A stretch of 64,000 nt of DNA. Source: Chloroflexota bacterium. Its GTDB lineage: Bacteria; Chloroflexota; Dormibacteria; CF-121. The notes beneath the pieces are model-generated. The model had not been told where the DNA came from. It worked only from the letters and a program-made list of their open reading frames with translations, and searched no databases. Location: contig VBDY01000122.1 in the NCBI GenBank assembly GCA_005882775.1, positions 9,317 through 73,316 on the forward strand, read 5' to 3'. A program made the position numbers and the translations under genes. Shown in pieces: positions 26,252 through 33,378 of the stretch (position 1 is its first letter; each line of letters starts with the position of its first letter).

Positions 26252-26274
26252 GACAGACAGCTGTCACAACCGCC
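26252..26274. repeat. 23-nt motif gacagaCAGCTGtcRcaaccgcc containing the 10-bp perfect palindrome GACAGCTGTC, copy 1
   Basis: Second copy at 33356-33378 with 1 mismatch. It sits downstream of a putative promoter (TTGACG-16-TAGATG) and upstream of ORF 26291. Confidence 0.6.
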
Positions 26275-29200
26275 GTTTAGCGTGGCGGCCATGGGCAACG
26301 TCATACCGTGGTCGCAGATTCACCCCACCGTCAAGAGCGAGGCGCCCTTCGTCAGCGTCCTGATCATCGACCCCACCCGCCAGCTGTGCGTCAGCGAGCA
26401 GATCCCGCTGGACCAGGAGGTCCTGGTTCATCCTGATGTCGCTGCCTCCGAGACCATCGCGGCGGCGCAGCAGGCTGCCGCCCGGGTGGCCAGCATGTAC
26501 CGTCAGCGTCTCAAGCAGGCGCCGACAGGGCCGGCATCCCCGGGCAGGCCTCGAATGGCGACGCCAGATCAGACACCGCCCCGATTCCGTGTGCTCAAGG
26601 GCGGATTGCGCCCGGCGCGCTAGCCCTAAGCGTTCGAGACCTGGTGCTCCTCTTCCAGAGAGTGCTCCGGGGCTGAGCCGTCCTCCGGTCCCCTTCTCCG
26701 CACGCTCCGCGAGTGAATCGTCCTTGGAGAAGAGGACGATCTGATGGTCCTGGCCGAGCCGGCCCAGCTCATCGAGCGCAGCCCGCATCCGGCGCCGGTC
26801 GGCATGCACCAGGGCCTCGTCGAGGAGCAGGGGAGGGGGTTCGGCGTTGCCTCCGATGATGCGGGCCAGTGCCACCCGCTCCAGCAGGTAGATCAGCGAG
26901 CGCGTTCCCAGGCTGAGGTTGTCCACGTCTCGGAAACCGCGCTGCTCCTGGGACTTTACCTGCAGAGTCAGGTCGTCCCCGACCTGGACGTCGCGATAGC
27001 GCCCGTTCGTGATCGGCGACAGCTGTCCCTGTAGTTGCGACTTGAGGCGGGGGATAACCGCGCGACGGACGGACCGGGCAGCCGCTTCCAGGGTTTCGAT
27101 GGCGAGGTCGTACGCGTGCGCCTCGACCTCCAGATGTTGGAGCTGTTCCCTGACGGCGCTGATCTCTTCTTCCAGGGAGGCGACGTCCCCGATCTGCATG
27201 AGCCGGTCGTTGAGCAGACCCTCGGCCCGAGCCCGCTCCTCCTGGGCCCGCTCCTTGGCCGCCCGGTGCTGGTCTCGCTGACGCTCCAATTCCGCCAGCG
27301 GCAGGGCGCGGTACTCGGCGACCCGCTGCGGGTCGAGGCCACGCATGGTTTCGGCGAGCTGCGATTCGAGGTCGGCCACCAGCTTGGCGAGTGAGGCGCT
27401 CTCCTGTTCCCCGGCGACCGTCTTCAGCTGATCGTCCAGGTCGCTCAGCCGGGCGGTCGAGCCGCGGTGCGCCTGGGCCCGGTCGACCGCCGCATCCCAC
27501 GCCTGTGCCGCCGCTTCTGGGTCCGTGGCATTGATACCGGCCGGTCCGTAGATGGCGGACAGCTGGCGGGTGTAATCCTCAGCCTTTGTCTGCTCGGCCT
27601 GGGCGCGCTCGGCCGGCTGCCGGAGCTGTTCGAGCTGGGCGTCGAGCTGCTCGATCCGGGTGCGCACCTGCTGGGCGGCACGGGCTGCTTCACAGGAGAT
27701 GATGAAGTCGCGACCGGCCGCGAGCGCCTCTCGCCGGTCGAAGCCTAAGCGGTCGAGGACGCTGTGCAGTCGCTGCCGAAGCTGCTCGCGCTTCTCGTCC
27801 AGAGCCGCCTCCGCGCGCGAAGCGTCCTGGGCCCTCTGGCTGGCTGCCGCCCAGGCGAGCCCGTCCTGGGCGAGCACATCGATCAGTTTGGCCGTCTGTT
27901 CCACGGACTCGTCCGTCGGGGCCGGCTGCGAAAGGCCCCACGACCCGACCATCTCCCGCAACGCCCGGCCGGCTGTCTGGGCCTTCTCCTCGAGCTCGGT
28001 CGCCTGCCGGTCCAGCTCCAGCCTGGTGGCGTCGTAGCGGACCTTCTGCAGGTGCTCCACCAGCGCTTGCTGGAGCTCCCCGGATGACCGAACGCCCCAG
28101 GCCGAGAGAATCTCACGGCGCTTGGTCCGGGCTTCGTCTTTGGCCCGGAGCCGCCGGTCCACCTCGCGGTGAGCGGCCGCCCGGACCCAGATTCCGATAC
28201 CGGTCGCCAGCACCCCCATGCCCAGGAGGAAGAAGGCGGTGCCGACCAGGGCCAGCGGCATGCCGCCCGAGAGTGCCAGGAACGCGATCAGGATGGCCAG
28301 CGCCGTGAGTAGCAGCCCGCCGAGCCAGGCGCCCAGGAAAATGTTCTGTCGCGCCCGGGCCCGCTCCGCCATCGCTTCCTCCCGTCGCATCGCCTCTTCC
28401 GCCTGCTGGCCGGCCTTGATCACGTCCGGCACTTCCTTGTAGCGGGCGATGTCGTGCTTGAGCTGCTCCAGCCGCGGCGGCAGCTCGGCTCCGGCTCGGG
28501 TACGTGCCTCGAGGGCGACGATGTGCCGCTCGCGCCACTCCGCATAGTGCCGCTGAAACTCGATCTGCCGGGCGGTCCAGTCCAGGTTTTGCCCGATCAT
28601 GCCGGGATGCCGCTCAGCGATCCGTCGCACCTCCTCGCCGGCGGCGTGCGCGCGCAGATGCACGTCTGGCGCCTGGGTGTCGGCGTAGGTCAGGGACGAG
28701 ACCAGCTCACGAACGAGCGGCTCTTCTTTCAGGGCCAGCTCATCGACGCCGCGGGCCCGGTTTTCCTGGCCCTGCGCTTCCGAGTCCAGCCGGGCGCGCT
28801 CGGCCTCGAGGTCCTTGACCTGGTCGGCAACCTCGGCAGCGCGCTTTAAGAAATCGTTCTGGGCTTCGCGAGCCGCGCGGAGGTGGCTGCGAAGCTCGAG
28901 CACTTTTGGATGGCGCTCCACCGCGAGCGAGGCAAATGTGGCGTGGTCCTGCTGGCGCTGGGTTTCCTCGCGAATTGCGCCCTGCAGCTGTGCCACATGG
29001 TCGAGCCGGCGGCGCGCCTCCTCCAGGCGCGAGCCGAGCACGGCGGCTTCCAGCATCTGCACGATCGACAGCTCAGCCTCGGTCAGGGCGGCCACCGCCT
29101 CCCGTTTCTGAGCGAGCTCATCCACGGCGGAGCGGGCTTTGCGGGCGGCCGTGATCTGGCGCTCCAGGTCGTTCAGGCGGGCTTCGAGATCGTGCAGTGG

Positions 29201-29794
29201 TCCACTCCTGGCCCGCGGCCGCCCGATTCTGTGGACCCGCTCCTGCCGGAGCCGGTCGAGCACCTTGGAGGCGGTGCGGTCGGGATGGGCCGAGTCCGCC
29301 AGGGCGGTGATCGCCTCCTTGATGCTGCCCGCGTCCTCGAGCCGCATCACCTCGCTGCGCGAGATGCAGGCGGTGTTGCCGTAGATCTCCCGCGTGACGC
29401 CGAGCAATTGCCGCCCCACCTGGAGACTTCCCCAGGGGTCGCGCTCGAACCGCTCGGTGATATCGTCACCGGCCGAGAGGTCGGTGACACGGACCGTCTC
29501 GGCATCGAGGTCTCGATCGATTCGCAGACGGGTCCCGTCGTCGAGCTCGACCTCGAGTCCGAGGCCAAAACCGCCACCCTGCCAGGGCCGCCACCGGTCG
29601 CTGTTCTCAACCGCTGCCGCCCGGCTTCGCTGGCGGTCGGACGCTAACCCGTAGAGCCCGGTGAGGATCGCCTCCTGGAGGGTGGATTTCCCCGCCTCGT
29701 TGGGTCCGACGACCAGGTTCATGGACTTTCCGAACCTGAGGTCTGTGCCCCGAAGGCTGCCAAAGCCGTCGATCTGGATCCGGGTGAGCCTCAT
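26264..29794 (-). CDS. SbcC/YhaN-like SMC-fold ATPase with two TM helices in place of a zinc hook
   Basis: Walker A GPNEAGKST at the N-terminus, long coiled-coils, a central hydrophobic hairpin (NIFLGAWLGGLLLTALAILIAFLALSGG...LVGTAFFLLGMGVLATGIGIWV), a C-terminal Walker B LLLDEAL and an H-loop-like HQIVLFSK. The ATG overlaps the upstream stop (ATGA). The ORF continues ~150 aa of low-complexity sequence past the expected end. Confidence 0.8.
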   Translation of the reverse strand: MRLTRIQIDGFGSLRGTDLRFGKSMNLVVGPNEAGKSTLQEAILTGLYGLASDRQRSRAAAVENSDRWRPWQGGGFGLGLEVELDDGTRLRIDRDLDAETVRVTDLSAGDDITERFERDPWGSLQVGRQLLGVTREIYGNTACISRSEVMRLEDAGSIKEAITALADSAHPDRTASKVLDRLRQERVHRIGRPRARSGPLHDLEARLNDLERQITAARKARSAVDELAQKREAVAALTEAELSIVQMLEAAVLGSRLEEARRRLDHVAQLQGAIREETQRQQDHATFASLAVERHPKVLELRSHLRAAREAQNDFLKRAAEVADQVKDLEAERARLDSEAQGQENRARGVDELALKEEPLVRELVSSLTYADTQAPDVHLRAHAAGEEVRRIAERHPGMIGQNLDWTARQIEFQRHYAEWRERHIVALEARTRAGAELPPRLEQLKHDIARYKEVPDVIKAGQQAEEAMRREEAMAERARARQNIFLGAWLGGLLLTALAILIAFLALSGGMPLALVGTAFFLLGMGVLATGIGIWVRAAAHREVDRRLRAKDEARTKRREILSAWGVRSSGELQQALVEHLQKVRYDATRLELDRQATELEEKAQTAGRALREMVGSWGLSQPAPTDESVEQTAKLIDVLAQDGLAWAAASQRAQDASRAEAALDEKREQLRQRLHSVLDRLGFDRREALAAGRDFIISCEAARAAQQVRTRIEQLDAQLEQLRQPAERAQAEQTKAEDYTRQLSAIYGPAGINATDPEAAAQAWDAAVDRAQAHRGSTARLSDLDDQLKTVAGEQESASLAKLVADLESQLAETMRGLDPQRVAEYRALPLAELERQRDQHRAAKERAQEERARAEGLLNDRLMQIGDVASLEEEISAVREQLQHLEVEAHAYDLAIETLEAAARSVRRAVIPRLKSQLQGQLSPITNGRYRDVQVGDDLTLQVKSQEQRGFRDVDNLSLGTRSLIYLLERVALARIIGGNAEPPPLLLDEALVHADRRRMRAALDELGRLGQDHQIVLFSKDDSLAERAEKGTGGRLSPGALSGRGAPGLERLGLARRAQSALEHTESGRCLIWRRHSRPARGCRPCRRLLETLTVHAGHPGGSLLRRRDGLGGSDIRMNQDLLVQRDLLADAQLAGGVDDQDADEGRLALDGGVNLRPRYDVAHGRHAKRRL
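26291..26623 (+). CDS. Hypothetical protein (conflicts with the 3' extension of the YhaN-like ORF on the opposite strand)
   Basis: Diverse, protein-like composition, preceded by the palindromic motif. The overlapping minus-strand tail is low-complexity. Which of the two is real is unresolved. Confidence 0.25.
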   Translation: MGNVIPWSQIHPTVKSEAPFVSVLIIDPTRQLCVSEQIPLDQEVLVHPDVAASETIAAAQQAAARVASMYRQRLKQAPTGPASPGRPRMATPDQTPPRFRVLKGGLRPAR

Positions 29795-33018: not shown

Positions 33019-33336
33019 GTGAACGTACCCTCGATCACGGCCGAGGAGGCGCACCGGCAATTGCAGCTCGACCCCCGCCCGCGGGTGCTGGATGTCCGGG
33101 AGCCGTGGGAATACGCCGCCGGCCACGTACCCGGCGCCCAGCTGATTCCGCTCGGCGAGCTGGAGGCGCGAGTGGCCGAGGTTCCCCGTGACCAGCCGAT
33201 CCTGTCGATCTGCCAGGTGGGCCAGCGAAGCCTGGCCGCGGCCGCCTTCCTGATCAGCCAGGGGTACCGGGATGTCACGAATATCGATGGCGGTACGACT
33301 GCCTGGCTCGAACGCGGCTACCCCGTCGATTTCTGA
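33019..33336 (+). CDS. Single-domain rhodanese (sulfurtransferase)
   Basis: GTG start. Active-site loop CQVGQRS, with REPWEYAAGHVPGA and a GG..AW tail. Confidence 0.7.
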   Translation: MNVPSITAEEAHRQLQLDPRPRVLDVREPWEYAAGHVPGAQLIPLGELEARVAEVPRDQPILSICQVGQRSLAAAAFLISQGYRDVTNIDGGTTAWLERGYPVDF

Positions 33337-33355
33337 GCCTTTGGCCTGATTCTGC

Positions 33356-33378
33356 GACAGACAGCTGTCGCAACCGCC
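33356..33378. repeat. 23-nt GACAGCTGTC-containing motif, copy 2
   Basis: gacagacagctgtcgcaaccgcc, ~85 nt upstream of the rmuC TTG start. Confidence 0.6.

Follow-up and report, generated by a model that had tools for sequence, protein, structure and literature searches.

A 23-nucleotide (nt) sequence motif that occurs twice in a 64,000-nt stretch of contig VBDY01000122.1 (referred to in its entirety as the window) is probably a composite promoter/operator of a phylum-wide regulon in the Dormibacterota, at which a homodimer of the neighboring WYL-type regulator would bind and activate transcription in response to DNA damage. A first-pass annotation of the window had placed two copies of this motif at the borders of a DNA-damage-response island of approximately 7 kb. 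The copies, GACAGACAGCTGTC[A/G]CAACCGCC, lie exactly at 26252–26274 and 33356–33378, both on the plus strand and identical at 22 of 23 positions. The island itself did not hold up: gene order across the block is conserved among relatives, its GC content is unremarkable, and the motif copies are two of many promoters in a phylum-wide regulon rather than borders. The features on which this reading rests are the following (window coordinates).

26252–26274, plus strand: motif copy 1, the predicted operator/promoter box, made up of the core GACAGACAGCTGTC (26252–26265) plus ACAACCGCC
26278–26283, plus strand: predicted -10 hexamer TAGCGT (TANNNT) from direct reading, with 7 nt and then ATG
26291–26623, plus strand: small gene of 110 residues behind copy 1
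30999–31994, plus strand: HTH_11–WYL–WCX regulator of 331 residues (Pfam), the candidate box binder
33356–33378, plus strand: motif copy 2, with the same core, then GCAACCGCC; RMAR is followed after 8 nt by a conserved TTGACT
33382–33410, plus strand: predicted rmuC core promoter (TTGACT at 33382–33387, 17-nt spacer, CACCAT at 33405–33410)
33453–34562, plus strand: rmuC, 369 residues, carrying an RmuC domain (Pfam PF02646, E 3e-12) and a hydrophobic helix at its N-terminus

The box and its distribution

In terms of sequence, the core of the motif is an imperfect palindrome that can be written as CGAC-N8-GTCG or as CGACA-N6-TGTCG, spanning 20 base pairs (bp), and the consensus of the box in the Dormibacterota is TGCGACAGACAGCTGTCGCA. 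A scan with the query GACAGACAGCTGTCRMAR of one genome per species (185,579 species) returned at least 117 matching loci. The matches listed include about 80 from Dormibacterota metagenome-assembled genomes (MAGs), in more than 30 assemblies, and among them several Dormibacterota genomes have at least four matched contigs, with the 14-nt core present in at least four copies per genome. The remaining listed matches are scattered over unrelated phyla in a number close to chance expectation, and the box had 0 matches in viral contigs. Within the 64-kb window, the 14-nt core is found only at the two sites when up to 2 mismatches are allowed; a bare GACAGCTGTC is present at 27018, inside an ATPase gene described below. 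Chance repetition was rejected as an explanation of the two 23-mers, as was a terminator or repetitive extragenic palindromic (REP) element, the palindrome being too short and loop-free for a terminator. A scan for consensus sigma-70 promoters and terminators gave neither at the two window copies, with the rmuC promoter scoring below the consensus threshold.

The box is also conserved by position. In genomes whose ATPases are ~70–77% identical to that of the window, the core is exactly preserved at both orthologous sites and the flanking sequence has diverged. The site of copy 1 is retained in other genomes and in sister strains (L202/L203) free of the insertion sequence (IS) that adjoins it in the window, and copy 2 is conserved upstream of rmuC in approximately 15 genomes.

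With respect to geometry, the asymmetric core always has the same orientation relative to transcription and stands at a fixed distance from the elements downstream of it. Specifically, a [T/C]AnnnT hexamer (or TTGACT) begins exactly 12 nt past the core in 86 of 118 sites, and of the 85 unique sites 70 have A at position +27 and 84 have T at position +31. The hexamer is followed by an ATG after 6 nt in 57 of these unique sites and after 7 nt in a further 8. Preferences extend upstream as well: the three bases preceding the core mostly read TGC, with T at 60/85, G at 52/85 and C at 65/85 sites. The resulting composite element reads (TGC)GACAG-ACAG-CTGTC(RMA)-N9-TANNNT-N6/7-ATG, in which the proximal TGTC of the box is 16 nt upstream of the -10 hexamer. 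The fixed hexamer and the close ATG indicate leaderless promoters that lack a -35 element; at copy 1, the ATG 7 nt after TAGCGT likewise implies a leaderless mRNA. A relaxed scan (1–3 core mismatches combined with the -10/ATG geometry) of ~1 Mb of loci gathered for the analysis added 3 sites, all of known classes, and could not resolve weaker boxes at recA or uvr genes.

An isolated occurrence outside the phylum involves L059 (uncultured Neglecta sp., Firmicutes), where the same 18-mer is followed by N8-TATCAT and stands directly upstream of a gene for a YafY/WYL-type helix-turn-helix (HTH) regulator. This single case hints at a type of box common to distant WYL regulators.

Predicted target genes

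Genes behind the box were counted at exact-core sites among the matches listed, in 8-kb windows, and the counts that follow have this scope. DUF222+HNH endonucleases form the largest class (~30 sites, several per genome). RmuC and a small protein beginning MGNVIPWSQIHP... account for ~15 sites each, a 133-residue protein with a long leader for 6, YajQ/DUF520 for 5 and an 84-residue Zn-ribbon protein for 3. Three targets were seen once each: a multiubiquitin protein and an RtcB RNA ligase with an intein (L057 and L114), and a RecB-like nuclease. At about 5 sites the box precedes a hairpin of ~60 nt and no open reading frame (ORF); this hairpin is probably a small RNA (sRNA), and a candidate for damage-regulated expression. 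The hairpin (GCCGGCGGC...GGGACCCGGAGACCA...GCCGCCGGC) lies at ~4045–4110 on the plus strand of L090, recurs in L091, L082, L024 and L007, and runs into the end of the convergent gene. It had no Rfam match and a fold z-score of only -2.3, and Rfam scans of the 22–36 kb part of the window and of five related loci returned nothing relevant.

The first-pass annotation had correctly noted rmuC downstream of the second motif copy. This copy lies between the rhodanese stop codon and rmuC, which starts 74 nt past it, and the layout there is distinct yet conserved: the box is followed by N8, TTGACT, 17 nt, CACCAT and a leader of ~40 nt containing a GAAGGAG ribosome-binding site, with the box center ~54 nt upstream of the inferred start. 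The rmuC leaders (33405–33452 in the window, together with orthologues) also share CCACCAT(G/T)A..ACGACCAAYCGTCC, a block whose conservation greatly exceeds what a -10 element requires; ATT takes the place of ATG in the window, which shows that the block is no conserved ORF.

The genes originally presumed to be under WYL control are a different matter. Across 13 aligned orthologous loci, the intergenic region between the nuclease and WYL genes contains no box; the alignment shows a conserved TATAAT and 5′ untranslated region for the nuclease operon and a TAGACT-type -10 near the WYL start. In the window, the WYL gene has a leaderless-looking promoter (TAACTT-N6-ATG), also without a box. Control of the nuclease/ATPase operon by the WYL protein via this box was rejected on the evidence of this box-free region. 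Judged by sequence, the ATPase–nuclease operon, the WYL gene and the pair of genes for a Zn-ribbon and a uracil-DNA glycosylase (UDG)-like protein are conserved neighbors that the box does not serve. The proposal of a PafBC-style regulon under WYL control is borne out in kind for the motif, for which the WYL gene is the best candidate binder, and fails for the genes thought to be controlled.

Candidate regulator

The divergent HTH–WYL gene of the first-pass annotation encodes a protein with HTH_11 (9.5e-8), WYL (5.8e-11) and WCX (1.3e-19) matches in Pfam, giving the full HTH–WYL–WCX architecture of an N-terminal winged HTH, a central Sm-like WYL domain and a C-terminal WCX domain, and it matches PADLOC WYL models with E values down to 1e-37. 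Its nearest relatives of known structure are DriD (8TP8, E 1e-15), further WYL proteins, and PafC/PafB (7P5X, E ~1e-9). Residues R41 and R45 align with R37 and R41 of DriD, two residues that binding requires and that read both guanines in each CGxC half-site. In addition, R198, K201 and R204, located in the sequence MRTFKLERI, align with RSWRLDR of DriD, in the WYL beta4 strand/loop where the class has basic residues for ssDNA, the second basic residue being Lys rather than Arg. Every locus examined has a single WYL gene, as opposed to a two-gene pafB–pafC arrangement, flanked by the nuclease and Zn-ribbon genes.

We predict that this protein is a new member of the WYL class of DNA-damage regulators, in an uncultured phylum. 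In the mechanism that we envisage, a homodimer of the HTH–WYL–WCX protein (30999–31994) would bind the box, its WYL domain would sense single-stranded DNA (ssDNA) formed after DNA damage, by analogy with DriD, DdaA and PafBC, and the triggered protein would activate transcription at box promoters. At most of these promoters, the proximal GTC placed 16 nt from TANNNT, the missing -35 element and the leaderless mRNA would correspond to the geometry of PafBC "sigma adaptation". Copy 1 would drive the 110-residue gene, and copy 2, positioned upstream of the -35-like TTGACT of rmuC, would occupy an activator-like position comparable to that of DdaA sites. This identity of the binder, activation over repression, and a DNA-damage signal are the most likely assignments given these analogies.

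Several observations weigh against this reading. At the exact-core sites counted above, none of recA, lexA or the uvr genes is found behind a box, and rmuC differs from the other genes in where the box stands with respect to the core promoter. Unlike driD, the WYL gene has a promoter without a box. Compared with the DriD and DdaA boxes, the spacer is longer by 1 bp, and the xxGACA within the core is 18 nt from the -10 hexamer, where it could double as a weak -35 element beneath a repressor site. WYL proteins include repressors such as BrxR and CapW, and the position of the WYL gene next to two box sites could simply mirror the strong synteny of the phylum.

Alternative explanations

Some of these same observations would suit a box that acts as a repressor operator laid over a weak GACA -35 element and released under stress, with the neighboring WYL protein acting like BrxR/CapW, a LexA-like protein or another factor as the repressor. 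The CAGACA found 18 nt upstream of the -10 hexamer fits such an arrangement, WYL repressors exist, and the WYL gene itself carries no box; palindromic operators overlapping promoters are, moreover, typical of repressors. Against this, the closest characterized relatives of the WYL protein, DriD and PafBC, are activators, as are DdaA and SiwR, whose boxes or their placement are similar. The box at rmuC lies wholly upstream of a good -35 element (TTGACT), a poor position for a repressor, neither lexA nor recA is among the genes behind exact cores in the matches listed, and the constant offset of 16 nt is the one shown by the -26 element of PafBC. We regard repression as rather unlikely. The fixed distance and orientation of the box relative to a -10-like hexamer, along with the lack of a canonical -35, could also suggest the -35-type element of an alternative sigma factor. 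However, sigma -35 elements are much shorter than an inverted repeat of 14–20 bp, the -10 has the housekeeping form (TANNNT), the rmuC box is followed by a separate TTGACT-N17-CACCAT, and the half-sites equal those of DriD and DdaA, all of which makes a sigma element highly improbable.

The first-pass annotation had also allowed for a nuclease/ATPase anti-phage defense module under WYL control, similar to those of BrxR and CapW. WYL regulators do often adjoin defense systems, the N-terminus of the ATPase matches the LmuB, GajA and PtuA models in a generic manner, and one genome has a multiubiquitin gene behind the box. Nonetheless, PADLOC models (PADLOC-DB v2) gave no complete defense system: the nuclease, UDG-like, Zn-ribbon and rhodanese proteins had no matches, RmuC was marginal (E ~2e-3), and the ATPase matches cover the generic P-loop N-terminus. 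The neighborhood is conserved and chromosomal rather than a variable island, distant homologous pairs occur without a WYL gene (in one case beside AddAB-like genes), and SbcE/SbcF, the Bacillus subtilis counterparts of the ATPase and nuclease, act in the repair of double-strand breaks (PMC2811018). With the operon lacking the box and the box lacking any viral-contig match, a defense module is very unlikely. Less credible still is the view that the two copies mark where a mobile or integrated element ends (as att sites or terminal repeats) or are remnants of IS activity, although they are direct repeats 7.1 kb apart and an IS110-family element abuts copy 1. Both sites and the intervening genes are syntenic in more than 25 species, and att sites or island borders were rejected; IS-free sister strains keep both copies, composition is unremarkable, and the core is found at many unlinked promoters. 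The IS is the later event and is RNA-guided to the box sequence. No genome was seen in which the 7-kb block is precisely absent with one motif copy left behind.

Genomic neighborhood

The remaining features of the region are as follows.

24325–24903, plus strand: GNAT acetyltransferase
24904–26250, plus strand: IS110-family (IS1111-like) element of 1347 bp, with the transposase at 24990–26009 and a 3′ non-coding guide region at 26010–26250
26626–29794 (nominal), minus strand: SbcE/YhaN-like ABC/SMC-type ATPase, whose ORF runs to 26264 in this window
29791–30885, minus strand: SbcD/Mre11-like (SbcF/YhaO-like) metallophosphoesterase, 364 residues, GTG start, overlapping the ATPase start by ATGA
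31991–32197, minus strand: Zn-ribbon protein, 68 residues (CPHCGG...CPKCG), with a 4-nt convergent overlap with the WYL gene
32194–32940, minus strand: UDG-superfamily-like protein, 248 residues, a weak assignment (Pfam PF03167, NCBIfam Arch_udg)
33019–33336, plus strand: single-domain rhodanese, 105 residues (Pfam PF00581, E 2.7e-19)

Two of the genes in this region, the conserved 110-residue gene (26291–26623) and the rhodanese gene (33019–33336), had been overlooked in the first-pass annotation; the rhodanese gene is also called in sister strains. ATPase homologues place the organism in Candidatus Dormibacterota, and more than 25 species-level Dormibacterota MAGs keep the order GGDEF–DUF2269–GNAT–small gene–ATPase–nuclease–WYL–Zn ribbon–UDG-like–rhodanese–RmuC–TIG. 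An IS at this locus was found in none of the more than 25 related Dormibacterota genomes with this order, and rmuC is syntenic in all relatives examined. The block has a GC content typical of the window. Taken together with the presence of the repeats as promoters elsewhere, the synteny and composition set the block apart from genomic islands and mobile elements. The closest comparison is provided by sister-strain contigs L202–L205, which are 99.5% identical to positions 14941–36557 of the window and lack the IS; both motif copies are kept in sister strains without it. In the lineage of L002/L003, an insertion of four genes (cupin, TetR, short-chain dehydrogenase and cupin, at 5330–7713) separates the WYL gene from the Zn-ribbon/UDG-like pair, and the adjacency of WYL and UDG-like genes is therefore not strict.

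The Zn-ribbon/UDG-like pair is itself conserved across related loci. The two genes overlap as the first-pass annotation had stated, through GTGA rather than the ATGA given there, and the assignment of the larger protein to the UDG superfamily is weak. Its match to PF03167 (E 1.2e-4) reaches 22.6 bits, below the Pfam gathering score of 24.3, and that to NCBIfam Arch_udg has an E value of 5e-4. By direct reading, LSPSPLD and VHPYQ stand at the positions expected for the two UDG motifs, the GEAPG-like motif A and the HPSP-like motif B, and a PDB sequence search with this protein gave zero matches.

The ATPase–nuclease pair

The ATPase matches AAA_23, AAA_27 and SMC_N at residues 1–55 and SbcC_Walker_B at residues 949–1008, its best PDB matches are Rad50 heads, and its homologues are named YhaN by JGI; it has the Rad50/SMC-like head of SbcE/YhaN (COG4717), in which long helical arms divide an N-terminal Walker A from a C-terminal Walker B/D-loop. 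Two transmembrane helices had been suggested in place of the zinc hook, and hydrophobic segments are indeed present at about residues 488–509 and 512–538, with no CxxC. The hydrophobic windows fall within residues 484–540 and are conserved within the Dormibacterota, and the zinc hook that marks SbcC/Rad50 is missing. What does not stand is the idea that this membrane hairpin is peculiar to the locus, as the SbcE/YhaN family has it in general: of 100 full-length homologues of diverse origin (19–32% identity to the query), 81 contain a central hydrophobic segment and 1 a central CxxC. About one-fifth of SbcE/YhaN-like homologues, mostly of ~950–980 residues (for example, P0255, P0283, P0292, P0297 and P0311), have neither a hydrophobic segment nor CxxC, and the family has at least two apex designs.

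The overlapping YhaO/SbcD-like nuclease was likewise found as described, a Metallophos/SbcD-like gene lying upstream of the ATPase with an ATGA overlap, although a PDB sequence search with the nuclease gave zero matches. The ATPase gene keeps an SbcF/YhaO-type partner immediately upstream throughout the close and distant contexts compared. Four of these contexts are distant; there the genes of the nuclease–ATPase pair again overlap, once beside AddAB-like genes, and none of the four contains a WYL gene or a box. The WYL adjacency is therefore lineage-specific, and co-conservation of the WYL gene with the pair, on which the earlier proposal had staked itself, does not extend beyond the Dormibacterota (0 of 4 distant contexts).

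SbcE (YhaN) of B. subtilis has a unique hydrophobic and insoluble central domain and no CxxC, and SbcE/SbcF have a role in double-strand-break repair in that organism (PMC2811018). The window pair resembles SbcE/SbcF in combining an SMC-like ATPase that has a hydrophobic center and no CxxC with an upstream Mre11/SbcD-like nuclease. It differs in that no yhaM-like gene follows, and its identity to diverse members is ~20–30%.

In the window, the ATPase gene carries a deletion of 62 nt at 26691/26692, between CCTTC direct repeats, relative to the 99.5%-identical strains, in which the protein is intact at 1076 residues. The resulting frameshift replaces the conserved last 41 residues (...WTIIRLP...) with antisense read-through of the small gene, and it is because of this shift that the ORF extends to 26264. 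The deletion is either a real variant or an assembly error.

The 110-residue protein

In the small protein behind copy 1, the N-terminus (MGNVIPWSQIHP) is invariant, a long helix and a disordered linker come next, and LRVLxGG, likewise invariant, stands at the C-terminus with 2–5 residues after it. We found 276 homologues, all on Dormibacterota-type contigs (some labeled Chloroflexi or Binatus), in which the ~75 N-terminal residues are almost invariant and the linker is variable. The family had no Pfam match. An AlphaFold model (mean pLDDT 70) shows a beta-hairpin and a long helix, and a Foldseek comparison of this model with the PDB yielded nothing better than E 0.9. A ubiquitin-like reading of the LRVLxGG tail was rejected, as the modeled fold is not a beta-grasp. 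The cassette formed by the box and the small gene is found in both orientations between the ATPase and GNAT genes across Dormibacterota lineages: comparison of window positions 26252–26623 with L002, L020, L028, L033 and others, and with L047, L077 and L112, showed it to be mostly co-directional with the ATPase gene and inverted in the window lineage and at least three others.

The IS110-family element

The IS element noted beside the motif in the first-pass annotation adjoins copy 1 and encodes a transposase of the IS110 family (IS1111 type), with DEDD and Transposase_20 domains and a match to the RNA-guided transposase model NF033542 of NCBIfam (E 2e-71). The element is flanked by TGA on both sides (24901–24903 and 26251–26253) and is inserted at the left edge of motif copy 1. 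The empty site, ...ctgTGACAGACAGCTGTC, is preserved in L202–L205, where the GNAT stop codon overlaps the box. Given that these 99.5%-identical strains lack the IS, the 1347-bp insertion is recent.

Relatives of the transposase (loci L122–L201) define conserved element ends, of which the left reads GATGTCATGAAGGAG... and the right ...CTTCATAGA. In L124 and L125 (74–75% identity), the element has the same orientation and lies 1–3 nt from the same box, before DUF222–HNH genes; a sister group of transposase relatives sits in another conserved target. In ~35 of ~50 distinct copies, the stretch of 11–12 nt that follows GCGCGCTC in the 3′ non-coding region is an exact reverse complement (8–11 nt) of the right flank starting from the TGA core. 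Complementarity of this kind between guide and flank is what an RNA-guided IS110/IS1111 element should show. In L124 and L125 the putative guide matches the (C)GACAGAC part of the box, and that of the window copy, GCAGCTGCCTT, fits the box over CAGCTG only and out of register. The element therefore adjoins the motif because its lineage targets the box. In its recombinase type, 3′ guide region and 3-nt TGA core at both junctions, the element is like the IS110/IS1111 systems that use a bridge (seek) RNA; it differs in that the lineage of the window, L124 and L125 copies is aimed at what would be a transcription-factor box.

Significance

Dormibacterota are abundant in soil and uncultured, and we know of no described regulon from this phylum. 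If the proposed reading is true, WYL-type damage control based on sensing of ssDNA reaches another phylum beyond the Actinobacteria, Alphaproteobacteria and Moraxellaceae, and the box is a natural intermediate linking the palindromic DriD/DdaA boxes to the PafBC -26 element. The reading offers a concrete 20-bp site and a short list of targets that are testable with recombinant protein. The "membrane-tethered Rad50-like" feature is a general SbcE/YhaN property that is still unexplained, and the IS illustrates how a regulatory site can be the natural target of an RNA-guided IS110 element. By-products of the analysis are the frameshifted ATPase, a new family of small proteins, a candidate sRNA and the box-targeting IS.

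Comparison with known systems

In its furthest form, which we put forward tentatively, the proposal would give the Dormibacterota a fifth lineage of WYL damage activators that joins two known designs, in which a DriD-like homodimer acts on a full CGACAG/CTGTCG palindrome at the PafBC -26 position. Sigma adaptation of leaderless promoters lacking a -35 would then be older and wider than the Actinobacteria, the regulon would be an unusual one of multi-copy DUF222–HNH, RmuC, YajQ, LRVLxGG and sRNA genes, and an IS110 guide would have been retargeted to its operator.

Resemblance to PafBC begins with the regulator, as both have the HTH–WYL–WCX architecture and the two guanine-reading HTH arginines are kept in the Dormibacterota protein. 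The PafBC motif, tGTCgg(N10)tA(N3)T, contains a GTC read by two arginines and has no -35. The first-pass annotation had cautioned that the window motif resembles the RecA-NDp element only partially. The likeness is closer than this suggests, as the distance from TGTC to TANNNT is the same 16 nt; a GTC element so placed upstream of TANNNT, with the -35 absent, is common to both systems. A parallel may exist among the targets as well: if the 13E12 genes of Mycobacterium tuberculosis belong, as we take them to, to the DUF222/HNH family, they correspond to the largest Dormibacterota target class. These 13E12 genes are damage-induced and contain RecA_NDp (PMC3381160). In contrast to PafBC, the Dormibacterota regulator is a single gene rather than a pafB–pafC pair of adjacent paralogues, which encode a heterodimer and are linked to the Pup-proteasome locus; no proteasome linkage was seen for it, and it is less similar to PafB/PafC than to DriD. 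Its box is palindromic, whereas RecA-NDp is explicitly non-palindromic, and recA or uvr targets were not seen at exact cores among the matches listed.

The palindromic boxes come from other systems. DriD of Caulobacter crescentus recognizes a CGxC-N7-GxCG palindrome with the consensus ATACGAC-N7-GTCGTAT and was crystallized on ATACGACAGTTACTGTCGTAT, and DdaA of the Moraxellaceae has the box CGWCA-N5-TGWCG, located ~50 bp ahead of starts. The crystallized site ATACGACAGTTACTGTCGTAT and the Dormibacterota box TGCGACAGACAGCTGTCGCA have the same half-sites, CGACAG/CTGTCG, and DriD is also the closest solved relative (8TP8, E 1e-15), with a conserved Arg pair. The rmuC box, at ~50 bp upstream of its inferred start, recalls DdaA. 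The Dormibacterota spacer (N8/N6) is 1 bp longer than those of DriD and DdaA and has a fixed ACAG sequence and orientation, the phylum is a different one, and most Dormibacterota targets are leaderless genes with PafBC-like -26 placement. An autoregulatory box is absent at 13 Dormibacterota loci, compared with its presence in 68 of 69 DriD homologues. Finally, SiwR of Mycobacterium smegmatis serves one adjacent dinB-like operon, whereas the Dormibacterota box marks a dispersed multi-gene regulon in which the divergent neighboring operon is left untargeted.

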